Shown: positions 4,132-64,000, counted from the stretch's first letter. The stretch is 64,000 nt of DNA from Bacteroidota bacterium (GCA_016705125.1 JADIYW010000002.1:147981-211980), one strand, 5' to 3'. Numbers and translations are program-made. Notes: generated by a model from the sequence alone, not told the origin.

Positions 4132-4677
4132 TTAAATTTCTTTATTCATTAGCATATAATTCAACCTATACATTCCAATTATAGTTAAGGAATCTCTAAT
4201 CTCGCCATTATGAATCATTTTCATCACTTCATCAATATGTATTTTTTTTATTTCTAACAATTCGGTTTCGTCCCATTTTATTTGAACTGATTTCAAATTC
4301 CTAGCCAGATAGATAATTGCTTTCTCATCTGTCACCGAATTAGAAGTATTAAATTCTGTCAATTTATCCCATTGCTCCGCTTCTAATCCTACTTCCTCCT
4401 GTAATTCTCGCTTGGCTGCATCGAGAGGATTATCATCAACTAATCCTCCTCCTTCCGGAATTTCCCAGCTGTACGCACCCAATGCATACCTATATTGCCC
4501 CACCAACCAAGTATTATTTTCTTCATCCAGTGGAATGATACCAATCGCCAAATTCTTGAAATGGACTGTTCCGTAAATACCATCTGTTCCAGTAGGGGTA
4601 ATTACATCCTCATGACTGACTTTTATCCATTTATTTTCATAAACAGTTGTTTTAGACTTTGTTTTCCAAGGATTCAT
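4132..4677 (-). CDS. NUDIX hydrolase (ADP-ribose pyrophosphatase-like)
   Basis: 181 aa containing the Nudix box GGGLVDDNPLDAAKRELQEEVGL. Confidence 0.85.
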   Translation of the reverse strand: MNPWKTKSKTTVYENKWIKVSHEDVITPTGTDGIYGTVHFKNLAIGIIPLDEENNTWLVGQYRYALGAYSWEIPEGGGLVDDNPLDAAKRELQEEVGLEAEQWDKLTEFNTSNSVTDEKAIIYLARNLKSVQIKWDETELLEIKKIHIDEVMKMIHNGEIRDSLTIIGMYRLNYMLMNKEI

Positions 4678-48997: not shown

Positions 48998-50405
48998 TTA
49001 TTTAATCAATTTTTTATTTAAGGTAATAAATTTATCAGCAGCCTCTATTTCAAAGGCCATTTCTAGTAGTTTTCGCTCCTCTCCTAGCATTGATGCAAAC
49101 TGAACGCCAATAGGCAATCCGTTTTTACTTATTCCTAAAGGTAAAGAAATAGCGGGTGCTCCAGTGATATTTTGCGTTGTTGTAAAATTTACGTAACTAT
49201 TCAACTTCATTATTACATCGATGGTATCTTCCTCGGTACCAAAATGACCAATCAAAGGTGCTGGGTGCGATAGCGTAGGACTAAGCAATAAATCATATTT
49301 TTCGAATAGTTTATTATAGTCATGTGTATGATTTTTTAAATTGCGAATGCTGCTTGCCGCACGAAAGGAAATAAGTGGAAAAAAGCCGCCTAATTGCTTG
49401 GTAAACTTTGCAGTTTTGAAATGATTAAATTTTAATCCATTGATTGCATACTCTGAAATCATCGTTGCAAAGGATAAAAAAGACCAATACACCATAAAAT
49501 CTCTTGTGATTTTATGTTCAAATGGATTGTTTATATATTCCACTTTATGACCAAATGATTCGCATAATTTGCCCGTTTCTAAGACAGCATTTGTAACATC
49601 ATTATCACTCTCAATACCTGTTGAAGATTTGGTAAACATCCCAATTCTTACTCTTTTTTTGTTGGCATTTTCCACCAATCCAATTGGCAAAAGACTAGAG
49701 TTATAATGTTGCTTTTCTAGTCCAGAAATAAAACTTGCGCTATCACGCACCGTTCTACTCACTATCCCATCTTGCGCAATATCTATTGGCACTAATTGCG
49801 ATGCGGATATAATATTTCTTCCACGTGAAGGCTTTAAGCCAACCAAACCACAACATGCAGCTGGGATCCTTATGGAACCGCCGCCGTCAGAAGCATGGGC
49901 GAAAGGTACCACGCCTGCAGCAACTAATGCCGCTGCGCCAGCTGATGAACCACCTGTTGAATGATCTAAATTCCAAGGATTTCTGGTTTCACCGTGTTGT
50001 AATGTTTCGCCACAAGGCAATAAACCAAATTCAGAAGTACTGCTTTTGCCAAGGATTATACTGCCCGTTATAGCTAAAAACTGGTCAACAATTTTGTCAT
50101 TTTTTTTGGCTTCTACTATTTTATAAGCACTCGAACCCTTGAGGGTCGGCATACCTTTTACATCATTTAAGTCTCTTTATAAAAGTAGGCACACCTGCAA
50201 ATATTCCCGTTTGCTTTGTTTTCGAATTTTCCTTAGCTGCGGGAAAATCATCATATACAATTGCATTTATTATTGGATCAATATTTTTTGCCCTTTCAAT
50301 AGCACATTCCACAGCCTCTTGTGCAGAAAATTCTTTCTTTTGAATCTTTTCTGCAATAGCTGTAGCGTCCAAATCTCCTAAAATACCAATACCAAATGTG
50401 TCCAT
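48998..50405 (-). pseudogene. amidase-signature family amidase, split by a 1-nt insertion as assembled
   Basis: The amidase signature GGSSAGAAALVAAGVVPFAHASDGGGSIRIPAACCGLVGLKPSRGR is in ORF 48998-50152; the N-terminal 80 aa is in ORF 50163-50405. Removing one base near 50174 restores GVPTFIKDLNDVKGMPTLKGS, with the conserved KD. Confidence 0.8.
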
Positions 50406-50412: not shown

Positions 50413-50450
50413 ATTAATTAAATTATTTCTAAAAATACGTAAAAACTTAA

Positions 50451-51464
50451 AGTATTTTAATTTATTTTATTGGCAATAAAAAAACTACTCATTTCAATAA
50501 AACGATTTATCAAAATATTTTAAAATTAAAACCAATACTCGGCATCAAAAAAACACTTAAATATATTGGAATATCATATCAACAATACCATCAACTAAAA
50601 CAACCAAAAAAGTGTAAGCTATCTGTATTTAAACAATGCCTAATTCAACATCCAAACCAATTACACCAACAAGAAGTAGACATTATTCTACAATACTGTA
50701 CAAATCCAAAATACCAATTTTGGAAACTTATATCCATTTTTCATCAAATCAGACGAGACCGAACCGCATTCTTTAGCCTGCGTACTTTTTATAAATATGC
50801 CAACGCTGCTGGATTCAGAAGACAAAAAATACCCACACAACGAAAAAATCATACCATCGGAATCAGAGCTGGCAAACCACTCGAAATACTGCATGTAGAC
50901 ACCACCATTTTAAGGTTACTCGACCACTCCAAAGCATTTATCCACCTCATTCAAGACAATTTCTCTCGAGCAATTCTCGGTGTAATTGTATCTCAAAAGT
51001 GCCTAGCCCAAAATACGTTCGATAATATCACCCAAGTTTATGAAAAACACTTAAAAGACAAAATCGATTTTAACCCAATTATTATCACCGACGATGGTTC
51101 GGAAAACAAAGGCGAATTCAAAGAATTTACCCAAAAAGCGCTCGACCCATTACTGATACATAAAATTGCTCAATCCATCCATTTTCACTTTTCCAATTCG
51201 ATGATTGAAAATGCCAACAAACAACTGAAATACTGTTTTTTGTATCACCAAAAAATTGAAGACTTTGAGCATTTATTGCCCTTTGTTCAAAAAGCAATTG
51301 AAGATTTCAATAATCGACCCCACGGTGTGCTTAATGGTTTTACTCCAATGGAAGTGCTAAATGGACAATTGCCCCTCAAAATAGACTATTCAGAACAATT
51401 AGCCATTGCGAAAGCCAATAGAATAGCATTAAACAGAAAAATAAAAACTTGTTGTGTCATTTAG
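50451..51464 (+). mobile_element. DDE (rve/integrase-core) transposase reading frame without a canonical start codon
   Basis: The frame is open for ~338 codons and has an HTH-like LGIKKTLKYIGISYQQYHQL. Catalytic contexts are LHVDTT, IITDDGSEN and MIENANKQLK...FNNRPHG (D, D, E spacing of an integrase core). The only in-frame ATG is at 51201. Confidence 0.7.
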
Positions 51465-51683
51465 CACCCTATTTAAACCAATCTGAATACAAAAAATACA
51501 AAAACAAGCGGTATTGCTAATAAGTTAATTCCAAATCAAGCATTACAACCCAAATACAATCTTATAACAAAAGATTTGTTTTTGTTTTGACCAACCCATT
51601 TTCTCCAACTTTTCTCAAACCGCCAAAACACCTTATTTTATTCATTTGTCCGACATTTCGGACACTTTTTTATAATTTGGTCA

Positions 51684-51725
51684 TGCACGTTGCACTGCAC
51701 GTTGCAATGCACTTTGCACTGCACG
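51684..51725. repeat. 12-nt tandem repeat TGCACGTTGCAC x3.5
   Basis: Read directly: TGCACGTTGCAC TGCACGTTGCAA TGCACTTTGCAC TGCACG. It lies about 220 bp downstream of the transposase stop. Confidence 0.85.
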
Positions 51726-51754
51726 GGGCTAGTTTGGGTTATAGATTATATTGG

Positions 51755-52294
51755 TCAGCAACTGTAATTCTCTTTGAAATTACCTAAATTAATATCATTC
51801 AAATTAAAAATTAATCCTTTGTTTTTTAGAAATATATCTCTTGAAGACAATCCTATCAACATAAGAAGGGAAGTAAAACAAGTACATTGTATATCTTCAT
51901 CTTCATCAATATTATTAAAAACTAGAAATAACAATGAAACAATTTTAACGTTTTTTGTTCCAAAATAAGCTGCTGATAAACCAGAAATACAGGTCAATCT
52001 TAAATCGAAATCGCTTTCAATATCTTTTATGTTTTTTAAGGCAAAATCTAAATATACATCTTTTTGTATTTTCAAACCAAACAATATACCATAGATTGCT
52101 ATTCTTTTATTTCATTTCTTTGATCCTCTAAAAACCTGCGTAAACATGTTCAACCATTTAACATCACTTATTATTTCCTTGTAAATAAGATCATAAAGAT
52201 ATGAATATAGTTCACTCTCATTTAATCTAATTTCATTTATATATTGGAGAATTTCTTCTTTTTTGTCCATTTTATTATCTTTTCGTTTTAACAT
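51755..52294 (-). pseudogene. hypothetical gene interrupted by one in-frame TGA (52112-52114)
   Basis: Track ORFs 52112-52294 and 51755-52084 are in the same frame. The 27 nt between them has no other stop (...FRGSKK * NKRIAIYGILFGLKIQ...). No domain recognised. Confidence 0.4.
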
Positions 52295-52836
52295 CTATCT
52301 TATCTCCATATTTATTAGCAGCTCTTTGCAATGCTCCATAAACTGAATCATATTGCTTTTGTAAGTTACTTCTTAGTTCTTTAGCTTCGATACCCCCCTC
52401 CTTAAAGTGACCTTTATTAATTCTTCTTCTAACTGTTTAATTCTTCTATTTAATCCTTTCATGTGTATAGAAATATCATTTAAATGATCCCAAATTTTTC
52501 CATGTTTAAAATTGGATTACAGCCAAATCTCCCCAATCTGGCGCAAGTATGCAGCATTGCTATGTGTGTTGGCGTACTTGTGTCTTATATTTTCTACCAT
52601 GTAACTAATATTGGATCTATTTGTATTATTTCTATCATTCCTTTTTCTCCACTTTAATATTGTTTTGCACAACTATACAACCGACTAAGCAAAACTTATG
52701 AAATATAACTTTTCATTATCATTAAATTTATATTTTCTGATCATTTTTCTTACAAATATAACCAAAATTTGCTTTATTATACCGCACAAGTACTCTATGC
52801 TTTTGGGCTTTGCTGCATACTCCTTGCGCAAGTTTG

Positions 52837-52888
52837 GTGTAGCGTCCAAATCTCCTAAAATACCAATACCGAAAGTGTCTATTTTTTT
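52837..52888. repeat. direct repeat copy 2 (orphan copy of the amidase 5-prime end)
   Basis: On the minus strand it encodes (GTG)KKIDTFGIGILGDLDAT, identical to the amidase N-terminus except I/M, then diverges. It differs from copy 1 at 3 positions, all third codon positions. Confidence 0.85.
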
Positions 52889-52934
52889 CACCTTTTAGTT
52901 TATTTCCAAATAGGCAAAAAAATAAATTTCACTC

Positions 52935-54652: not shown

Positions 54653-55704
54653 CTAATAAATGAATCTACTTTTTAATTGCTGGTTCAACCATCTTCCAAC
54701 TGGAATTTCGACAAAAAAAGTAATGCATGTAGCCATTAAAATTACTATAGGTAAGGCAACCAAACTTGCCTGCCAAAGGTTGAAACTACAATGTTTTTCC
54801 AAATAAGGAATAATCAAATCGATACTGAAAAATTGGTGAATAAGATATAAAGCAAACGATATTTTGCCAAGGAATAGAGTGATATCATTTACAATAAAAT
54901 TCAATTTATTGTTTACAAAAAGCAAAAACAAAACAAAATAGAACACAAGCATTCCCAAATATTGATCCCACGAAATAAAGGGCTGCCATCTATCGGTATT
55001 ATCGAGCAATAAAAGTTGAATTACAAAACCGAAAAGCAGGAACACATAATTGGAAATTATTTTTTTTTTTCATTTCCGTTTTTTATTTGATAAAAAAATA
55101 TGCCAGCTAAGAACAATGGCAAATGGTTAAATAAAGGGAAAAAATATTTTATGTTTTGAAATAGATTTGGATAATTTATTGGCAAAATAATTTCATAGCA
55201 CAGTAAAACAAACATTGACAAAAATGCGACAATACTGAAATATTTAATTAACCTCGCTTTAAAAACGAGTAACATCAAAAAGTAAAAAAGAAGTTCAATA
55301 ATCATCGTCCAATATGGGCCATCGAGGTCGGGAATTTTGAAATAATATTGCAGCATGGTCATATTTGGAAGGTATTGTGCAAAACTTATTTGATCTATTG
55401 TAATCACATTATATGCCATTTTTAAAATTATTTGCCCAATAAAAGTAATGGTTACACAAGTCCAATAGGTTGGAAAAAGTCTTGTAAACCGATTAATAAC
55501 AAACTCCCTACCTGAAGAAACCTTGTTTAGTGTCATAAAAATGACAAAACCACTGATGATGAAAAACAAATCGACACCAGTAATGCCTAAATTAAAACCC
55601 AAGTTGGCTTCAGGTTTTTCCATTGTATAATGAAAAAAAATCACCAACATGGCAGCTAAGCCGCGCAATGCATCTAGTTCTTTGTATCTAAATGATTTAT
55701 CCAA
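54653..55704 (-). pseudogene. acyltransferase-3 family membrane O-acyltransferase, split at an 11-nt homopolymer
   Basis: The N-terminal ORF (55057-55704) starts with the LDALRGLAAMLVIFFH signature. The C-terminal ORF (54653-55045) continues the TM helices. The frame changes at T11 (55060-55070; A11 = KKK on the coding strand). Confidence 0.75.
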
Positions 55705-55774: not shown

Positions 55775-55960
55775 CTATTTCTTCAACCTATCCTTAAAAA
55801 TTTTCTCAAACTTGTCTATTTTGGGTTGTATCACCATTTGGCAATAGCCTTGGCTTTTGTTATTATTGAAATAGTCTTGGTGGTAATCTTCTGCTTTATA
55901 AAAAATAGTAAATGGTTCCAATTGGGTTACGATGGGCGAATCATATAACACTTTATTTAT
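55775..55960 (-). pseudogene. msrA: 3-prime remnant of peptide-methionine (S)-S-oxide reductase msrA
   Basis: The minus strand reads INKVLYDSPIVTQLEPFTIFYKAEDYHQDYFNNNKSQGYCQMVIQPKIDKFEKIFKDRLKK*. This is the conserved MsrA C-terminus (FYxAEDYHQ[DQ]Y). No start or catalytic GCFWG region is present, and it abuts the stop of the 55971 gene. Confidence 0.8.
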
Positions 55961-55970
55961 AATATTTTTT

Positions 55971-56603
55971 TTAGTGCGAATCTAAATCAACAAAATTATT
56001 TTCCGCTTGTAACCATTCTGCTTGTAAAAAAAATGGAATATTTTGTTGCTCACAAGCTCTTACAGTATGTCCAGTGCCACCGCCTTTTGGGTTTTCTAAA
56101 TTGATATAAAAAATAGCTGCTGTCGCGGGTAGAAATCCATTTGCCTTTGAGCCATAAACTTTCAATACATCACGTATCAAAAGTTTAGCATTTTCGGCAG
56201 CCCGATTTTTAATGCCTTTCATATAGCAATCTGTAAGGAATTTGTACGTTGGTGTTGCTTCTATGGTTTTGTCCACCAAAAACTGCAATTCATCCGTTGG
56301 TAAATCTTCCAAACTAATCATTCTTGCGTGTTGTATTAATCTCTTTTTTCCCATCCCTGTGGCTGGCAGTACATATTCTAATCTGGTAGGGTCTACTAGT
56401 GCTATACCTTTTGCAAATGCTTCATCGCTGCCAGTGGCATTGCCAGTTCTAAATATACACCTTGGATATTTTGTAGCTAATTGTTGTGCTAATGCAATTA
56501 ATTTTGGCGCATCGGATTCTGCCAATTTTCGCGTGCCTTCTAATAATATTATTTCATTAGAAGACGATGTAAGATTTACAGTAAATTCTTTAAAACTCAT
56601 CAT
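55971..56603 (-). CDS. SLOG-fold (DprA/YpsA-like Rossmannoid) protein, function unknown
   Basis: Start placed at ATG 56603, 4 nt after the AAA+ gene stop. The glycine-rich loop RTGNATGSDEAFAKG fits the GxAxGxDxxA type of DprA/YpsA, and there is a C-terminal GGTGHTVRACEQQNIPFF. By eye only. Confidence 0.5.
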   Translation of the reverse strand: MMSFKEFTVNLTSSSNEIILLEGTRKLAESDAPKLIALAQQLATKYPRCIFRTGNATGSDEAFAKGIALVDPTRLEYVLPATGMGKKRLIQHARMISLEDLPTDELQFLVDKTIEATPTYKFLTDCYMKGIKNRAAENAKLLIRDVLKVYGSKANGFLPATAAIFYINLENPKGGGTGHTVRACEQQNIPFFLQAEWLQAENNFVDLDSH

Positions 56604-56607
56604 AATT

Positions 56608-58281
56608 TTATTTTTTAAACCCAATACTATTCAGTAAATTTTTATTAAAATTTTCTTGTTTGCAAGTATCCTTGTACCAGTTTATATCTGGGTGTATGCC
56701 ATGTATAACTTGGTGCATTGTGGCTTTGCGTACTATGTTTTGTATTACACCACCGCTAAAATCATAGGCATTGGCAAGCTGTAGCAAATCTTCGTCATTC
56801 AATTGTTTTAATAATGAACGATATATTTTAAAACGGGTATCAATGGTTGGAATATTCAATTCCAATTTAAATAAAAAACGTCTATCAAAAGCATTATCAA
56901 TATTATCAATTAAGTTGGTTGTAGCCATCAAAATACCTTTAAAATCTTCCATTTCTTGTAGTATAATATTTTGAATTTCATTCTCTGTTTGTGCGGTATT
57001 TGATGAGCTGCTATCTTTACGTTTATTGATAACGCCATCTGCCTCATTAAAGAAAAGTATTGGAATATTATCTTGCGTTTTCATGTATTTATAATAGTCA
57101 TCAAAAAGTTTTTTTATTATTTTTTGCGATTCGCCAAACCACATACTTTTTAAATTACTTATATCTACTCTATAAATATTGCGTTGTGTTTGCTTTGCCA
57201 TCTGATAAACCGTTTCTGTTTTTCCTGTACCTGGTTTTCCATGAAGCAATATAGTTATACCACTTGGCATATTATTTTCTTTTAAACGATTGGATATGCA
57301 TTTAAATTTTTCTTCTTGTAGTAAGTTTTGTATAAAATCAATCGTTTTAAAATCATCGGTATTGTAAAAAAGAGATTTATCCTTAATTTCGTTTGCTAAA
57401 ATAATATTTTTCTCCCCTTTGTCTTTTGCGCTGCCAACGCAAATCATACTTGCATCATCACCAAACAAATACTCCGCACCATTTTTGGTGAGTTCAATGT
57501 CTACATCATTTCTCCAATTGTGTGGTTTTACTATTAATATTTCTAATTTGAAAAGCGTTGTTGTATTAAAGTCTCTTAAAATAGCTCTTTTTAAATCATG
57601 AAAATGGCTTCCCTTTTCCCAAAAAATTTCATCTAAAATAATATTTAAATTTATATCGTAATCTCCTTTATAATAACTAACCACAACATACAATAAAAAT
57701 AATTTAAGCTCAAAAGTTAGTTCTAACGATAATAATTTATTTGCAAAAAATATATGTTTATTGATTTCTAATAAATCAGTTATTTCTTCCCAAGCCTCAT
57801 CAAAACTTATTTCCTTTTCTACGTATTGATCCAACAATTTTTGGATTTCAGCAAGTAATGAAATATTAGAATCAATGGGTGCTTCTTTCTTTGGTTCGGT
57901 ATTATTTAAAATAGATTTTATAATGTCTTTTTTAAAAAGGTAGCTAAATTGTTCCCTTTTTAGTGTATGTCTATCATAGTTTAAGGCAATCAGTTTTTTC
58001 TGTAATAAAATACGTATTGATGGTTCGTGTTTAAGCAGTTCAATGGGAGTGCAATCTAAATGATAAGCTATATCTTTAATATCAAAACTACAACTATTTT
58101 CAAAGAACTTTGAAAACATAATGGCAAACATCAAAGCTTCTTCTGATGTGCAATTGTATTTATCTTTTACTGGTTTGCAAAGTTTTTTGATTTGCAAGGA
58201 ATCAAACGCTTCCAGTTTTTTATCTTTTGTTTGTTTAAATATTTCAATAATGGAGTGCAAAATAATGTTTTCTTTTTTCAT
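56608..58281 (-). CDS. AAA+ ATPase (classical AAA clade module) with a large uncharacterised N-terminal domain
   Basis: 557 aa with Walker A LLHGKPGTGKT, Walker B ILFFNEADG and second region of homology ATTNLIDNIDNAFDRRF. The first ~320 aa have no recognisable motif. Confidence 0.85.
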   Translation of the reverse strand: MKKENIILHSIIEIFKQTKDKKLEAFDSLQIKKLCKPVKDKYNCTSEEALMFAIMFSKFFENSCSFDIKDIAYHLDCTPIELLKHEPSIRILLQKKLIALNYDRHTLKREQFSYLFKKDIIKSILNNTEPKKEAPIDSNISLLAEIQKLLDQYVEKEISFDEAWEEITDLLEINKHIFFANKLLSLELTFELKLFLLYVVVSYYKGDYDINLNIILDEIFWEKGSHFHDLKRAILRDFNTTTLFKLEILIVKPHNWRNDVDIELTKNGAEYLFGDDASMICVGSAKDKGEKNIILANEIKDKSLFYNTDDFKTIDFIQNLLQEEKFKCISNRLKENNMPSGITILLHGKPGTGKTETVYQMAKQTQRNIYRVDISNLKSMWFGESQKIIKKLFDDYYKYMKTQDNIPILFFNEADGVINKRKDSSSSNTAQTENEIQNIILQEMEDFKGILMATTNLIDNIDNAFDRRFLFKLELNIPTIDTRFKIYRSLLKQLNDEDLLQLANAYDFSGGVIQNIVRKATMHQVIHGIHPDINWYKDTCKQENFNKNLLNSIGFKK

Positions 58282-58723
58282 AATGTATAGTGTTTTAGGA
58301 TTAAAAAATGCTTAAAATGTTAATGTTCATAATTAACAAGTAGAAAATAATCAAATGCTACGACAAAAAATGTCGTATATAATTAAATTAAAAAGACCTA
58401 TTGATCATTAGGTATTTTTAAACAGAATATAACTGTTTTGATATTGGTATCGCGACTTAATACAACTAATTCCCTTTGTTATAATGCAAAGATACAAAGC
58501 CAAACTGATAAAATCAAGTATACAAAATATTGACAATCAATCAATTGTGATTTTATAAAAAAAATAAAATCTGAAAACAACAAACTTTTAGTTTGCATAC
58601 TTTTTGAAGTAGCGTCGCCAACGCTTTTATAATGGCTCAATGCCAATTCTCTTGGGATGTTGTTGTTTTTTGTAAATTAAAAATTGAAAAAAAAGAAAAC
58701 AAAAATATCCTTTTTATAAAAAA

Positions 58724-60664
58724 TTAAACTGCTTTCGTTGTCCAGTGTTTCCAAATAATAACCATTGCCATAGTGTCTAATTGGCAATAATTAAGTAATT
58801 CTTGTTTTAATCTTTCTCTTCTGTTAGCATCTGTTTTGCCTTTGCCAAAGAGCATTTCCTGATAGGCACGCATGGCTCCGCTGCCTTCTTTCACGGTTTC
58901 ATAATTCTCAGCCGTTTCAAATTCTAATTCGTCCCAACGGTTTTTTAAGGTTTCGTACGGACTTAAAATATTTCCGTTTTCATCTTGCTTGAAATATTGT
59001 TTAAAGTAAGGAACATCGTGCAGGTATTTATTGAAATTCCAGGTTGCTGGTAAAGTCTTTTTAATAGACGTTCTGCCTTTCATGTATGGATGAAAATAAT
59101 GCTTTAGCGTGAGCGCATTCATATCAATTAATCTACCTAGTCTTGGATTCGCTTTTTTATCACTTTCTTTTGTAATATTAAACAACCAAGTTTTTAGTTT
59201 TTCATTTCTATAACCATTTACATAATTATCTGGATTTTCTAGTTGTTCTAAGATTTTTCTAAGTACAGTATTTTCATGAGTCGCCCACATTAATGGTGTT
59301 CCTGTTTCACCGATTTGTTTCATCAAGCTTTCTGCAAATCTAAAATTCGGGAAAGTCGTTTCTGTATTTATCCATTCTGAATGTATTGGAGCATCACCAA
59401 GCTTTTCGATGGCATGACAACTCCACTGAAACGCTATGGTTTCATAAGGTCGCATACCTTTGTGGTGCGGAATGGCGCATGTCAGCGTTTCAAAGTCTAT
59501 GAAATGCAAAGGATATTTCCAACCAGACAATTCATCGCTCAACTCTTCAGAAAAATATTCTGTTCCGTTTTTTGTGTTTTCATATTGTATAATTTGTCTT
59601 TCGTTTCTTGAACCAACTTCGCCTTTTGTCGTTACAAAATCTGTAATGTCGTAATCAAAAATGGATAATGCTTTTTCTGATTTTAGTTTGACATTAACCA
59701 ATGGTTCACTAGTTCCACCAATGGTGCCACCGTAATATAATTCTGAGATATGATTTTTTGTATATGCTCTTTTTCCTAAACATTGAAAGTAACCATCTTT
59801 GTTTTTGTCATCCGGATTTTTGAACTCACAGGCAAAACATTTTTTAGAAATTAAATCCTTAATTATTGGAGCTTCTTCTTTGTTTAAGTACCTAAGATAA
59901 AGTGCTGTTCTTTTTTTTATATCTTCCATCATCTTATCTACATCATCATTGACATTCAAAGTTTGCAGAATGCTCTTGTTATTTTCCCAAAGTTCTTTTT
60001 CCTTTCCTTGTTGAGTAAAAGTAACTTCAATGGAATTAAAATCACCTATTTTTATTCTATCCGTAATCTCAAACCAAGAAGCTAAATTTTCTATTTGTGT
60101 AGCATTAGATTTATTCGGCATTAATAAATTTGCTTCAACGGTAAAACTTGGAAATGATGTTTCATGCTCTTTTAAAAATTCGCTTAACACCAATTTTTGA
60201 TAAGCAACATCTTCAATGTATTCTTTTAATTTTTTCTTTTGAGTAGTGCTTTTATCTTCATCTTCCTCTACCGTTTCGTGCGATTTTGCTTTTACTTCTA
60301 ATATTTGAAAATGGTTGTTGGTTTTGATTAAAACATCAATTCTAATCAACATTTGCCCAGTAGAAATAGCCGGTTCAAACAAGATTATTTTCTCATTTTC
60401 AAAGAGTAATTTTTCTGTTTGTTCAATAGCTTGTTTTGAATTTCTATCTGATGTGATTTCTTTACACACATATCCATTTTCTCTAGCATATTGCTCATAC
60501 ATTACAGTAGCCATTTTACCAACTATGTAACCGCCTTCTGCTAATATTTGCAGGAATTCATTTTCTTCATTTGAATTAGGATATTTCGCTTTTTTATATA
60601 GCAGTTTCTGTGGACAATCAGAAGCTAATTTAAAGTCGGATTTGGAAAGTGTTGGATTAGCCAT
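58724..60664 (-). CDS. DUF2779-type protein: N-terminal PD-(D/E)xK (RecB/Cas4-like) nuclease plus C-terminal DEDD-like exonuclease fold
   Basis: 646 aa. The N-terminal LSKSDFKLASDCPQKLLYKK and RIDVLIK...ILEVKAKS give a D...E-x-K motif. There is a central Cys cluster (CFACEF...FQCLGK), then C-terminal HFIDFETL...IAFQWSCH and YCQLDT motifs. Confidence 0.7.
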   Translation of the reverse strand: MANPTLSKSDFKLASDCPQKLLYKKAKYPNSNEENEFLQILAEGGYIVGKMATVMYEQYARENGYVCKEITSDRNSKQAIEQTEKLLFENEKIILFEPAISTGQMLIRIDVLIKTNNHFQILEVKAKSHETVEEDEDKSTTQKKKLKEYIEDVAYQKLVLSEFLKEHETSFPSFTVEANLLMPNKSNATQIENLASWFEITDRIKIGDFNSIEVTFTQQGKEKELWENNKSILQTLNVNDDVDKMMEDIKKRTALYLRYLNKEEAPIIKDLISKKCFACEFKNPDDKNKDGYFQCLGKRAYTKNHISELYYGGTIGGTSEPLVNVKLKSEKALSIFDYDITDFVTTKGEVGSRNERQIIQYENTKNGTEYFSEELSDELSGWKYPLHFIDFETLTCAIPHHKGMRPYETIAFQWSCHAIEKLGDAPIHSEWINTETTFPNFRFAESLMKQIGETGTPLMWATHENTVLRKILEQLENPDNYVNGYRNEKLKTWLFNITKESDKKANPRLGRLIDMNALTLKHYFHPYMKGRTSIKKTLPATWNFNKYLHDVPYFKQYFKQDENGNILSPYETLKNRWDELEFETAENYETVKEGSGAMRAYQEMLFGKGKTDANRRERLKQELLNYCQLDTMAMVIIWKHWTTKAV

Positions 60665-61127
60665 TTTGTTGTTTTTGTTGTTGAGTTAAATAATATTTTT
60701 CTGCAGCGTTTAAATTTTCAATGCCACCTTTTAGATTTATTTTATCTAATATTTCATCGGTGTTGTAATGCAACAAATCTCCATAGGCTTGTATAAAAGC
60801 TTCATCTGTTACTGTTAAATTTTTTGAATTATTAAGCGCAGCTAAATAGGCAAATAAATTGTCGTTGTTATCATCTGCTTTAAAGGAATCTGCTTCTATG
60901 AGTTTGCTATTGGTAAGCAATGTTTGAAATGGAGCGATAATATAAATGCCAACTTCACATTCCTGTATTAATTCAATAATTGCGGAAGTAGCAGCATTTA
61001 AAAAAAGCAGTACAGCACCTTTGTCATCCAAAATAATTTTGTTGTAATGCTGCAAGGCAAGTTGCACATGAAACTCTCCGAGCTGTTTGCGTTTTGGATT
61101 ATTTAAGAATAGAATAAAATGGTGCAT
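60657..61127 (-). CDS. hypothetical protein, member of the mcrBC-DUF2779 operon
   Basis: 156-aa ORF, 8 nt after mcrC, overlapping the DUF2779 gene start by 8 nt. No motif recognised. Confidence 0.5.
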   Translation of the reverse strand: MHHFILFLNNPKRKQLGEFHVQLALQHYNKIILDDKGAVLLFLNAATSAIIELIQECEVGIYIIAPFQTLLTNSKLIEADSFKADDNNDNLFAYLAALNNSKNLTVTDEAFIQAYGDLLHYNTDEILDKINLKGGIENLNAAEKYYLTQQQKQQNG

Positions 61128-61135
61128 GTAATTTT

Positions 61136-62572
61136 TTATTTTTCAGTAGTTTGAATTTTAAATATCTCATCGAATTTTTTAAATAAATTAGCTTCTATGT
61201 TATTTACATTTTCGGATATTATTGGTAGGTTATAAGCATTAATTTTTATTGGCTTTTCTTTATTTTTATCAAAAAGATCTGTAATCTCAAAATTTGCTTC
61301 ATCTTTCATTTGTTCAGCACATTTAGGATAAAAAAGCATAAAATCTTTTACATCTTTTCTTATGGCGTAACTTGCCATTTGATACATGTCTAATTGCGAA
61401 ATTCCTTTCTTTTTGTTGTTTTTATCAAATGAATCTTGTTTTCTGATTTTATATTTTGTATCAATAATGTATTTAATATTTTTTACTTCACACTCTATAT
61501 CTGTTTTTAAACTAAAAACATTTTCTAAGTTTCCATTAATTACTGTAGTTGCTAATTTAATTTCACTATTTTGAGTAGTTAAATGTTTCTGGTTATTCTC
61601 AATTAAATAATTATCCAGCATTGTTGAGATAAAACCTTCAAATATTTTTTCCATTGGTAAAAGAAAACAAAAATTGTCTGAATTATAACTATCATTATTG
61701 AAGGTTTGCTGTTCCAATATCATTTTACACCAATAAAGAATTTCTTTGTATTCTGAAAATAAATCACTGATTTGTATGCGTTCTATTTCCTGTATGGTAC
61801 AAACACGATCTTCTACTTCATCCAGAATAAAAACGATATTATCGAGTTTTGAGATAGATGTATTTTTTGCTTTATGTTTCAAAACTCTAGTAACATATTT
61901 AATAACTTGATTTACTTTATTGTCATACACAAATGGCTCATATACACAGTCTATCTGGTGCCAGTTTCCGTTAGAAAGCCCATGATTTATATAAGCCGGA
62001 AAATTAATTCTACCTTTCGGCGATTGCAAAATTTCTTCCACTTCTTCGTAACGACTGAATGGTTTTTGGCTCACTGCATCTTCAATTAATGTGGCGATAT
62101 AATAAATCAAAAACTCTGGAAAATCTTCTATGGAAATATTATCTAAAGTAGTATTATTTACACGAGCAGGCAGCCAGTCACAATGTTTAAGCCAAAAGAA
62201 AATATGTTGCAACCAATTGTTTTTGTCTGTAGGTTGAATCTCTCCATTTTTTTTATAAAATATCTTTGGATATATTTCGATTATCTTTTCGCCATGTTGG
62301 ATGAACCCAATGTAATTATTTGGTTTTATTGACTTTCTGTCTAAAGAAACAAATCGTTGTTTAGATTTTTTGACATCACCAATTTCTTCCTCATCTTCAA
62401 CATTTTCTTCGGTTTCTTTGTTTATCTGATTATAAAAATTATTATCAGTTGGTTTTGAAATCAACGTATTCCAAACTGTTTCAAGTATAGTTTCTAATTC
62501 ATCTACATTACCTATTGTAATTGAGTCAATATTTTTGTGTTCAAATAATATTATGTGATTGCTTTCTGACAT
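61136..62572 (-). CDS. mcrC: McrC-like restriction endonuclease subunit
   Basis: 478 aa, immediately (2 nt) downstream of the McrB-like gene. The C-terminal nuclease core has IIDTKYK (the D-x-K of PD-(D/E)xK), as in McrC. Confidence 0.75.
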   Translation of the reverse strand: MSESNHIILFEHKNIDSITIGNVDELETILETVWNTLISKPTDNNFYNQINKETEENVEDEEEIGDVKKSKQRFVSLDRKSIKPNNYIGFIQHGEKIIEIYPKIFYKKNGEIQPTDKNNWLQHIFFWLKHCDWLPARVNNTTLDNISIEDFPEFLIYYIATLIEDAVSQKPFSRYEEVEEILQSPKGRINFPAYINHGLSNGNWHQIDCVYEPFVYDNKVNQVIKYVTRVLKHKAKNTSISKLDNIVFILDEVEDRVCTIQEIERIQISDLFSEYKEILYWCKMILEQQTFNNDSYNSDNFCFLLPMEKIFEGFISTMLDNYLIENNQKHLTTQNSEIKLATTVINGNLENVFSLKTDIECEVKNIKYIIDTKYKIRKQDSFDKNNKKKGISQLDMYQMASYAIRKDVKDFMLFYPKCAEQMKDEANFEITDLFDKNKEKPIKINAYNLPIISENVNNIEANLFKKFDEIFKIQTTEK

Positions 62573-62574
62573 TG

Positions 62575-64000
62575 TTAAGAATTAATTTGGTCTTCAGTTT
62601 TTGTTTCTTTAATATCACTTGATGTTGGTAACATTTTTCCAATAAACTCTTTAAATAAACCTTCTTTATCTTTAGGAATAACCTTGGTAACCAATTCCGT
62701 ATTGTTATTAAAATATTCCATCAATAAAGGAAAAACTTTGAGTTTCATTACTTTATCAGTATCCAAATCTTTCATAAAAAATGCATGTCCTATTTGGAAA
62801 TCAGCACTTTTGTTTCCTATTTTTTTATCTGTTATGTTTGTATTTATTGCTTTTAATAAATCAGCATCTTTAGGATTTAATCCATCAATATCGTATTTTG
62901 GTGGCATTGGTTCAAACTCAAATCTTCTTCTTAAAGCAATATCAATTAAGGCAATTGATTTATCAGCGGTGTTCATAGTGCCGATTAAATACAAGTTGGA
63001 AGGAACACCAAATGATTCGCCATTTGGTAAGCTAATAATCAATTCATTTTCTGCTCCAATTCTTTTGTCGTCTTCCAGCAAAGTAATTAGTTCTCCAAAT
63101 ACACGAGAAATATTTGCACGGTTGATTTCATCAATGATGAGTACATAATTCTTATCCAAATTATTGTAAGCCGTTTTACACATACGATAAAATATACCAT
63201 AGTTTTGTTTGAATGTTAGTTGAGCGTCATTAGCTATATTAGGTTTTAACCCAATTACAAAATCTTCATAAGTGTAGTTTTGATGAAAAGTTACAAATTC
63301 TATTTGGTTGGCATCTAGTGCAGTGTCATTGAAAGATAGTGTTTTATTGCCAGCAAATTCTTTATATTTTTCTACAATTTTTTCTCTATCTGTTTTTTCT
63401 TCATTGCTTGTAATCTTTTTATTGCTATTTGTATTTTCAATTATTTTAACAGCAAGTTCTATAGTATTGTACGTTTTACCAGTTCCTGGAGGACCGTATA
63501 GTATGGTGTTGAGTGCTTTTTTTAACTCAATTGAAATTATTTTTCCTTTTAAATTAACTGTATCTGAACTTAATTTACTAATATTATTTTCATATTCAAT
63601 TTTAACTTTATCACGTAATTGTATCCATTTTAATAAATCTGGTATAAAATCTTTATAATTTGGATTACTTATATCCATCAGTTTTATTATTATTAAATTC
63701 TTGTTTAAGCCATACTCTATCAATTTATCTTTGACTTCATTTGGATTTTTATGTCCGTTGCCAACATTCATTTTCCCATTTTCCAATAATGTAACTTGAT
63801 TCCCTTCCGAAATAAAATTATTGTCATCAACTGTATATTGTATTATGTGATTTTTCTTATCTCTAGGCTGTCTTCTTACCCAAATTTTATTTTCATTAGA
63901 ATCAAATTTAATTAAATATAGTATGTCTTCATTAGTTTTAAATGTGTAAATATTTTCTTGAATTTCAACAAGTATAAAATCCTTGATGTTAGTATTGAGC
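62575..64000 (-). CDS. mcrB: McrB-like AAA+ GTPase restriction subunit (5-prime end beyond the window)
   Basis: Walker A LYGPPGTGKT, Walker B LIIDEINRANISRVFGE and McrB signature GTMNTADKSIALIDIALRRRFEF. The frame upstream of the track start (TTG at 63786) stays open to position 64000, so the N-terminal DNA-binding region is truncated by the window edge. Confidence 0.85.
   Translation of the reverse strand, partial: LNTNIKDFILVEIQENIYTFKTNEDILYLIKFDSNENKIWVRRQPRDKKNHIIQYTVDDNNFISEGNQVTLLENGKMNVGNGHKNPNEVKDKLIEYGLNKNLIIIKLMDISNPNYKDFIPDLLKWIQLRDKVKIEYENNISKLSSDTVNLKGKIISIELKKALNTILYGPPGTGKTYNTIELAVKIIENTNSNKKITSNEEKTDREKIVEKYKEFAGNKTLSFNDTALDANQIEFVTFHQNYTYEDFVIGLKPNIANDAQLTFKQNYGIFYRMCKTAYNNLDKNYVLIIDEINRANISRVFGELITLLEDDKRIGAENELIISLPNGESFGVPSNLYLIGTMNTADKSIALIDIALRRRFEFEPMPPKYDIDGLNPKDADLLKAINTNITDKKIGNKSADFQIGHAFFMKDLDTDKVMKLKVFPLLMEYFNNNTELVTKVIPKDKEGLFKEFIGKMLPTSSDIKETKTEDQINS

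Follow-up and report, generated by a model that had tools for sequence, protein, structure and literature searches.

The locus considered here raises the question of whether two tightly spaced genes in a bacterial defence island form a defence system of their own or belong to something larger. It lies in a stretch of 64,000 nucleotides (nt) from a Bacteroidota bacterium (GCA_016705125.1, JADIYW010000002.1:147981-211980), called the window below, in which a gene for an AAA ATPase (gene 1) is followed on the minus strand by a gene for a small protein of the SLOG superfamily (gene 2). The first-pass annotation had described the two as a two-gene module assignable to no named defence system. The latter part of this claim stood up to Pfam, NCBIfam and PADLOC scans and to tests against individual systems; the two-gene module itself did not survive a check of neighbour conservation. 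With about even confidence, the operon is read here as one output of a WYL-type switch, probably responsive to single-stranded DNA (ssDNA), and as accessory island cargo for which a role in defence is favoured.

Conservation of the gene pair and its link to WYL regulators

Neighbourhoods were compared in the loci of the 80 closest relatives of each gene, the gene 2 set being genomic and the gene 1 set metagenomic (loci are cited by L numbers). A relative of gene 1 is present in two of the gene 2-anchored loci (L001 and L002 alone) and missing from the other 78, while a relative of gene 2 occurs in a single gene 1-anchored locus (L092, identical to the window), the remaining 79 being without it. 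Direct adjacency of the two genes is restricted to one narrow Chitinophagales lineage. In L001 and L002 a gene for 247 amino acids (aa), X247, sits between the AAA and SLOG genes, and X247 also follows the AAA gene in L091 and L093 (63-64% identity), where it is the sole downstream gene on short contigs. The operon of L083 runs AAA-p158-DUF2779-SLOG behind a WYL gene, and the window holds its four families (p156, DUF2779, AAA and SLOG) in another order. Several sister contigs have a frameshifted SLOG or DUF2779 gene, and the AAA gene is intact where the SLOG frame is often broken. Of the earlier operon reading, the single operon with its 4-nt spacer is upheld (the gene 2 ATG lies 4 nt past the gene 1 stop codon at 56608-56610) but the self-contained two-component system is not. 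The two-gene module is partly supported at most, and AAA and SLOG are taken as separate cargo genes of a variable island and no stand-alone pair. Closely spaced genes of a defence island can look like a “system” when what is conserved is a regulator with interchangeable cargo.

X247 itself (L001 7237-7980; L002 7236-8612; L082 718-1461; also in L091 and L093) has no family match. In L002 it runs on into SLOG as one open reading frame (ORF) of 458 aa, and this fused or read-through ORF accounts for an apparent link between the two families; X247 of L001 was rejected as a SLOG paralogue (BLASTP E 10).

The conserved partners of gene 1 are a WYL regulator and nucleases, not SLOG. A WYL gene lies near 37 of the 80 gene 1 relatives and near 24 of the 41 whose loci reach at least 9 kb (HTH-WYL-WCX genes, HTH standing for helix-turn-helix), mostly directly downstream and co-directional (16 loci), else divergent upstream. 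Genes of this architecture stand beside cargo in L001, L002, L083-L090, L177 and L178. DUF2779 is found in 10 of the 41 long loci; further recurrent neighbours are PDDEXK_4, DEDDh exonuclease, GmrSD/DUF262 and metallophosphoesterase genes, and occasional ones are UDG, NT5C, AddAB and type I restriction genes. On a replicon of a Segatella hominis isolate AAA, HAD and PD-(D/E)XK genes adjoin a WYL gene, and a Chryseobacterium balustinum plasmid carries, in this order, exonuclease, DUF262, DUF262, AAA, WYL, GTPase and LeoA genes. As a separate observation, AddB- and AddA-like helicase-nuclease genes lie directly beside relatives of the gene 1 family (AAA555) in L130 (111-6067) and L134 (11490-17335), an adjacency which hints at a link of AAA555 to double-strand-break processing.

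A WYL gene is also found near eight of the 80 gene 2 relatives; direct WYL-SLOG pairs occur in L003, L045, L057, L067 and L072, whose retrieved sequences showed no AAA555 gene, and the protein P0400 is a WCX-SLOG fusion. Since the WYL ties were found separately for AAA and for SLOG, both are regarded as independent WYL-linked cargo. Otherwise the neighbours of gene 2 are very mixed (VIT/VWA, WYL, RtcB, RlaP, IMS, Cas1, Fic and others), with no standout partner.

Three further contexts of SLOG relatives were recorded. A VIT/VWA protein of ~757 aa adjoins SLOG in L024, L046, L055, L069 and L077 (Verrucomicrobiota and Pseudomonadota); a ~157-aa protein is present in four of these five loci, and in four VIT/VWA is directly upstream of SLOG (p157-VIT/VWA-SLOG). 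The Microscilla plasmid pSD15 (L171 5387-7540) has a Metallophos-Metallophos-SLOG operon, SLOG being last, beside relaxase and MobC genes. A second AAA family (AAA357, ~357 aa, weak STAND/NACHT-like matches) recurs near SLOG (L001 4094-5167; L002 4040-5113; L067 8574-9614; L025 3181); it stands directly downstream of SLOG in L067 and has its own operator copy in L001.

WYL regulators such as PafBC, DriD, CapW and DdaA sense ssDNA and control DNA-damage and defence genes, and in the pattern described for them a single site is shared by the promoters of regulator and cargo (PMC11662680, PMC12392091). Such a site is present here. Upstream of gene 1 lies a 19-bp palindrome (Table 1) with the consensus TACGwCAT-N3-ATGwCGTA, whose strict pattern occurs once in the 64-kb window against 0.075 sites expected, and again before the AAA genes of L001, L002, L081/82 and L083 and the WYL gene of L002. 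A position matrix built from these sites recovers others on which it was not trained, before the WYL gene and the divergent AAA357 gene of L001 and the AAA gene of L091, and gives no match on shuffled windows. Altogether the palindrome precedes AAA genes in six lineages, the window and five others, and WYL genes in L001 (2611) and L002 (880); regulator and cargo genes accordingly share it. Its spacing to the TATTTT box is 9 nt in the window, L001, L002 and L083, and in the WYL promoter of L002 the box reads TACCTT, also at 9 nt. The box is likely the -7 promoter element of Bacteroidota, and the palindrome occupies the position expected of the -33 element. Control of the operon by a WYL protein is predicted because the same palindrome precedes the adjacent HTH-WYL-WCX gene in relatives. 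No convincing operator-like palindrome was found in the distant WYL-SLOG pairs, and a search of the region with Rfam matched no family.

The likeness to known WYL operons (BrxR, CapW, PafBC, DriD, DdaA) extends to three features: the HTH-WYL-WCX gene adjoins its cargo, as in gene 1 relatives; a palindrome common to the regulator and cargo promoters stands just upstream of the -7 box, also in the present relatives; and defence and repair cargo are mixed, likewise here. Unlike in those operons, the cargo (wHTH-AAA, wHTH meaning winged helix-turn-helix, minimal DprA-like, DUF2779, X247 and others) is uncharacterised, and the island of this genome contains no regulator gene.

The promoter segment is itself duplicated, the window copy being 84% identical over 363 nt to L173 4891-5250 and L082 275-634; the second copy, ahead of X247, includes the AAA 5' end and looks like a trace of a past rearrangement. 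Just upstream of the operator lies a near-perfect 34-bp palindrome, TTAAAAATACCTAATGATCAATAGGTCTTTTTAA (minus strand, 58388-58421), which is retained in both promoter copies of the window lineage and was not seen in L001, L002 and L083.

The two proteins and their named relatives

The ORF call of the window agrees with the placement and length first given for gene 1, and the classical AAA assignment of its C-terminus is confirmed, as GKPGTGKT, ILFFNEAD and ATTNLIDNIDNAFDRRF are all present. The Pfam AAA profile (PF00004) matches residues 344-475 with E 5.4e-24 and 85.5 bits (cutoff 21.2), and the module comprises Walker A (GKPGTGKT), a pore loop (KSMWFGES), Walker B (FFNEAD) with its glutamate, sensor 1 (TTN) and, in the second region of homology, the arginine fingers (RR). 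Invariant in the family alignment are G351-T355 of Walker A, N412-E413, N456 and R467/R468; in all 33 aligned members N412 takes the place of the usual aspartate of Walker B, and the catalytic E413 is retained. The family is conserved over its full length of ~555 aa, members of 33-38% identity spanning the entire protein, and it has thousands of members (more than 7,800 of 8,000 scored candidates match at E <= 0.001), many of which may have only the generic AAA domain in common with gene 1.

As noticed before, the ~320 residues preceding the AAA module lack annotation. An AlphaFold model of aa 1-330 consists of helical bundles and small hairpins (predicted local distance difference test, pLDDT, 84.7), for which Foldseek returns solely weak structural matches to MarR-type wHTH proteins (E ~0.04), and the profile of the region matches the Lrs14-like winged-helix regulator 6cmv at positions 56-127 (E 5e-4). 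On this model the region is read as two putative winged-helix units.

The best named relatives of the AAA part, namely IetA/IteA, PAN, CdvC, CDC48 and FtsH, all score far under their family cutoffs. IetA/IteA of the IetAS system gives the best PADLOC and NCBIfam matches (2e-26 and 2e-23), limited to the generic AAA part; in the IetA models this part is preceded by ~110 profile positions, as against the ~320-aa N-terminal region of gene 1. Membership of IetAS was rejected, with 83 bits for NF042959 against a cutoff of 510 and no protease gene in the island to match the IetS serine protease that adjoins IetA in that system. NCBIfam matches to PAN, CdvC, CDC48 and FtsH range from 1e-16 to 1e-18. 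Gene 1 has Walker A, pore loop, sensor 1 and twin arginine fingers in common with Cdc48/p97, PAN and FtsH, and its loop K-S-M-W-F-G-E-S resembles the D2 loop of p97; it differs from these proteins in its one AAA ring module, winged-helix N-terminus, NE in Walker B and lack of a protease partner. Because of the pore loop, in which WFG is intact, and the arginine fingers, gene 1 is predicted to have unfoldase activity. Literature searches yielded no description of the AAA family of gene 1 or of a WYL-AAA module.

Gene 2 starts with the ATG at 56603, an alternative upstream TTG at 56624 giving 217 aa. It had been called by eye a SLOG protein of the DprA branch, and this proved right at the level of both fold and profile, since fold, profile and homologue matches agree. 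The motifs TGNATGSDEAFAKG and GGTGHTVRAC are present and are the most conserved blocks across ~259 homologues of ~200 aa from Bacteroidota, Verrucomicrobiota, Lentisphaerota, Desulfobacterota and other phyla, none of them annotated; four blocks are invariant in the alignment (LLEGTR, FRTGNAxGSDxxFA, RDxxKVxG and GGTGHTxR), and a scan of 1.84 billion cluster representatives yielded 678 family members (clusters at 50% identity). An AlphaFold model built from the homologue alignment (pLDDT 92.6; predicted template-modelling score, pTM, 0.89) matches in the PDB, by Foldseek, Helicobacter pylori DprA (E 1.9e-5), ShosA (2.7e-4) and then molybdenum-cofactor carrier proteins, LOG and PpnN, and in BFVD phage DprA-like proteins of ~200 aa (template-modelling score, TM, 0.62-0.70; E down to 4.6e-11). 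The curated profile phrog_768, ‘DprA-like DNA recombination-mediator protein’, matches residues 23-192 (E 2.4e-9), so that the DprA-like branch is indicated by a superposing fold together with a profile match. A tblastn relative, a 196-aa protein of a Miltoncostaea plasmid (27% identity, E 1e-6), itself passes PF02481 (DNA_processg_A) and PF18306 (SLOG cluster4). Gene 2 has no direct match in Pfam, NCBIfam and PADLOC, and its family profile found no relative among PDB sequences.

Gene 2 agrees with DprA and phrog_768 in its Rossmann-type SLOG fold and in the succession of its motifs (GTR, G-x-x-G-S-D, RD-x-x-K-x-x-G and GGTGHT). The bacterial DprA has, in addition, an N-terminal SAM-like and a C-terminal winged-helix domain, both missing in gene 2, and its competence-gene setting is not that of gene 2, which is found in WYL-linked islands. 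Gene 2 is the core domain only and therefore no canonical three-domain DprA; identity with the competence RecA loader was rejected (210 aa, one domain, no PF02481 match above cutoff). SLOG domains function in the Thoeris and Shosta defence systems. Thoeris consists of the TIR protein ThsB and of ThsA, in which SLOG is fused to a SIR2 or transmembrane effector; membership was rejected, no TIR or SIR2 domain being found in gene 1, gene 2 or their neighbours and no Thoeris match by PADLOC. In Shosta (ShosTA), too, a DprA-like SLOG protein, ShosA, takes part in defence, and it matches gene 2 through the structure 8zva; it is 308 aa long as opposed to 210 aa, and its partner, the phosphoribosyltransferase toxin ShosT, is not at the gene 2 locus. 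Shosta membership was likewise rejected, with no phosphoribosyltransferase nearby, no PADLOC match for gene 2, and similarity to 8zva in fold only. ShosA is a DNA-binding protein (PMC11961720). Because both characterised relatives, DprA and ShosA, bind DNA, gene 2 may by analogy bind ssDNA or a nucleotide and so mark or protect ssDNA.

Weighing the possible roles of the operon

According to the favoured reading, a WYL regulator, encoded outside the island in this genome, would control both island operons through their common promoter and palindrome, and expression would rise with the build-up of ssDNA while a phage or plasmid replicates or following DNA damage. Gene 1 would act as a hexameric protein unfoldase directed by its winged-helix domains to DNA or to a DNA-bound protein, gene 2 would be an independent WYL-linked cargo that in this lineage came to share a transcript with the AAA gene, and replication intermediates of foreign DNA would be attacked, with the DUF2779 nuclease as executor. 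The grounds for leaning to defence over host DNA repair are the accessory nature of the island, the turnover of its cassettes, and the presence of McrBC and GmrSD in operator-driven or neighbouring operons. It is the uncharacterised cargo that is new; the regulatory scheme is already known.

A number of points weigh against this reading. No WYL gene is present in the 64-kb window or in the island of the sister contigs, so that regulation in this genome rests on the operator alone, and the predicted control could be activation or repression. In a simple scan the palindrome is also flagged as a terminator-like hairpin. This alternative was rejected, as the palindrome lies ~350 nt past the DUF2779 stop codon, is conserved in sequence with a fixed spacing to TATTTT, precedes WYL genes, and has its pairing broken in L083 and L091; position, conservation, spacing and broken pairing favour a protein-binding site. 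Housekeeping repair genes are found beside AAA relatives (AddAB in L130 and L134, UDG, NT5C and two DNA polymerase III alpha-like proteins), and a role in DNA damage is about as well supported as one in defence. Searches of phage genomes by tblastn found no homologue of gene 1 or of gene 2, and above the generic AAA level no PADLOC model matched either of them. The family-wide NE in place of DE in Walker B means that ATPase kinetics may be unusual, the frameshifts in SLOG and DUF2779 reflect either gene decay or assembly error, and the ORFs of the compared loci were called mechanically and crudely, with family profiles from few seed sequences.

The most serious competitor, possible and yet clearly less probable than the favoured reading, is an SOS-independent DNA-damage response in which ssDNA activates the WYL protein, the DprA-like protein loads or stabilises RecA, the AAA protein strips stalled or cross-linked proteins, and DUF2779, UDG, NT5C and other nucleases clear lesions. 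PafBC, DriD and DdaA are indeed WYL regulators of DNA-damage regulons, DprA and ShosA have a role in recombination, and a DnaB_C/RadA-like gene joins AddAB, UDG, NT5C and the DNA polymerase III alpha-like genes beside AAA relatives; an IMS-family polymerase, RtcB and RlaP occur beside SLOG relatives. A repair function is at odds, however, with an accessory, repeat-flanked island whose cassette content varies among close relatives, with McrBC within an operator-driven operon, with the recurrence nearby of GmrSD/DUF262, type I restriction-modification, ParE, AbiE and LeoA-type genes, and with the patchy distribution and frequent frameshifts of the family.

An autonomous AAA-SLOG defence system, with the N-terminal domain of AAA as the sensor of infection and SLOG as the effector or signal receptor, would suit the single operon and its close spacing, the island setting next to McrBC, the part played by SLOG domains in Thoeris and Shosta and the retention of the pair in sister contigs of this species cluster. 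It is nevertheless improbable in view of the rare adjacency, of relatives at 54-64% identity that have X247 after AAA (L001, L002, L091 and L093), of contigs in which SLOG is frameshifted and AAA intact, and of the separate WYL tie of each gene. Equally hard to credit is the proposal that the main task of the AAA protein is to assist the WYL protein in regulation, perhaps by remodelling it or detaching it from DNA so that the switch is set or reset, with SLOG and the rest as interchangeable, functionally unlinked cargo. In its favour, AAA followed by an adjacent co-directional WYL gene is the commonest arrangement (16 loci), the winged-helix domains suggest targeting to DNA or to the regulator, and the AAA-WYL core is constant amid widely varying cargo; against this, the window lineage has kept the AAA gene although no WYL gene adjoins it, and 17 of the 41 long loci have no WYL gene within reach.

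A more far-reaching proposal can be made, although it must be called speculative: winged-helix AAA and WYL could be the conserved core of a system triggered by ssDNA that is widespread and so far undescribed, occurring in thousands of Bacteroidota and other bacteria, with a Cdc48-like unfoldase working on DNA-bound proteins and swappable cargo (DUF2779, PDDEXK_4, DEDDh, GmrSD, DprA-like SLOG and X247) for nucleic-acid chemistry. The window would then be a variant with a minimal DprA-like protein as the co-transcribed partner of the unfoldase. Two sizeable families without assigned function, the ~555-aa winged-helix AAA and the ~200-aa minimal DprA-like proteins, are tied to WYL regulators, which stand at the junction of phage defence with the response to DNA damage. 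Through the conserved operator the Chitinophagales regulon could be defined, and it could be probed whether a protein unfoldase has a part in DNA-centred immunity or repair.

The island and the remaining genes of the window

The island placed beside McrBC by the first-pass annotation is confirmed as an accessory island, with McrC and McrB upstream of the pair; its architecture was taken from the sister contigs L173-L175, which are 98% identical to the window and reach past its end. It measures ~12.5 kb, is inserted at the 3' end of msrB-msrA, and combines restriction genes (McrBC) with nucleic-acid enzymes that are uncharacterised. At its start stand an intact msrB-msrA and operator copy 1 with the duplicated 360-bp promoter segment; the first operon then comprises promoter/operator, X247, p165, p154, p383, McrB, McrC, p156 and DUF2779, and the second and last, behind operator copy 2, AAA and SLOG, followed by the msrA 3' remnant and an acyltransferase gene. 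The claim that the island truncated msrA holds as regards a remnant after gene 2; there is no simple truncation, however, as the island has an intact msrB-msrA at its opposite end. The remnant duplicates the 3' terminus of that gene (L173 3270-4331; repeat 4149-4329) with 86% identity, and the island is thus flanked by ~180-bp direct repeats. No integrase was found among the island genes of L173-L176. A relative with an 85%-identical AAA protein carries the island at this site too, the place of McrBC being taken by a second p412-family gene, which indicates cassette turnover, and the McrBC cassette is present or absent among close relatives.

The lack of a visible effector, also claimed earlier, is corrected by the DUF2779 gene, which had been overlooked and which, judged from its domains, is likely the nuclease of the set. 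DUF2779 is counted among the 3'-5' exonucleases with a DUF83 domain (PMC3985635). In L083 and L001 it is encoded in one operon together with AAA and SLOG, and p156 is its conserved partner in the window lineage and in L083 (96% identity to L082, 46% to L083 7784-8260). The McrB product is 493 aa long in sister contigs (L173). In the window its frame is still open at the last position, so that the N-terminal DNA-binding portion lies beyond the edge.

Table 1. Features of the AAA-SLOG locus and its surroundings, in window coordinates
Feature	Position	Strand	Description
msrA 3' remnant	55775..55939	minus	54 codons + stop; right-hand direct repeat; PF01625 positions 122-153 of 153, E 1.2e-8
Gene 2	55971..56603	minus	210 aa; single-domain DprA-like SLOG protein
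Gene 1	56608..58281	minus	557 aa; two predicted N-terminal winged-helix domains, then classical AAA ATPase
AAA module, gene 1	56857..57252	minus	aa 344-475
First predicted winged-helix domain, gene 1	57901..58149	minus	~aa 45-127
Duplicated promoter segment	58230..58589	minus	holds operator and first ~50 nt of gene 1
TATTTT box	58344..58349	minus	9 nt downstream of palindrome, 62 nt before gene 1 ATG
19-bp palindrome TACGACATTTTTTGTCGTA	58359..58377	minus	predicted operator of WYL-type regulator
DUF2779 protein	58724..60664	minus	646 aa; PF11074 E 7e-26; Cas4-like PD-(D/E)XK + RNase H-like predicted 3'-5' exonuclease
p156	60657..61127	minus	small protein; 8-nt overlap with DUF2779 start
McrC	61136..62572	minus	PF10117 E 9e-63; inside first operon of island; order seen in L173-L176
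McrB	62575..64000	minus	AAA_5 and NCBIfam McrB matches; frame open to window end

Beyond the island two genes of the window are split. The acyltransferase gene (54653-55704) is broken into ORFs of 215 and 130 aa and is intact in sister contigs at 351 aa, and an amidase gene (48998-50405) into ORFs of 384 and 80 aa, being intact there at 471 aa; either real frameshifts or assembly errors may account for both. Relative to L173 the window also carries an insertion of ~2.4 kb at 50446-52833, bounded by a duplication of ~88 bp (L173 20905-20992 matches the window twice) and including a fragment that resembles a transposase (51201-51464) as well as another copy of the N-terminus of the amidase (52685-52891).

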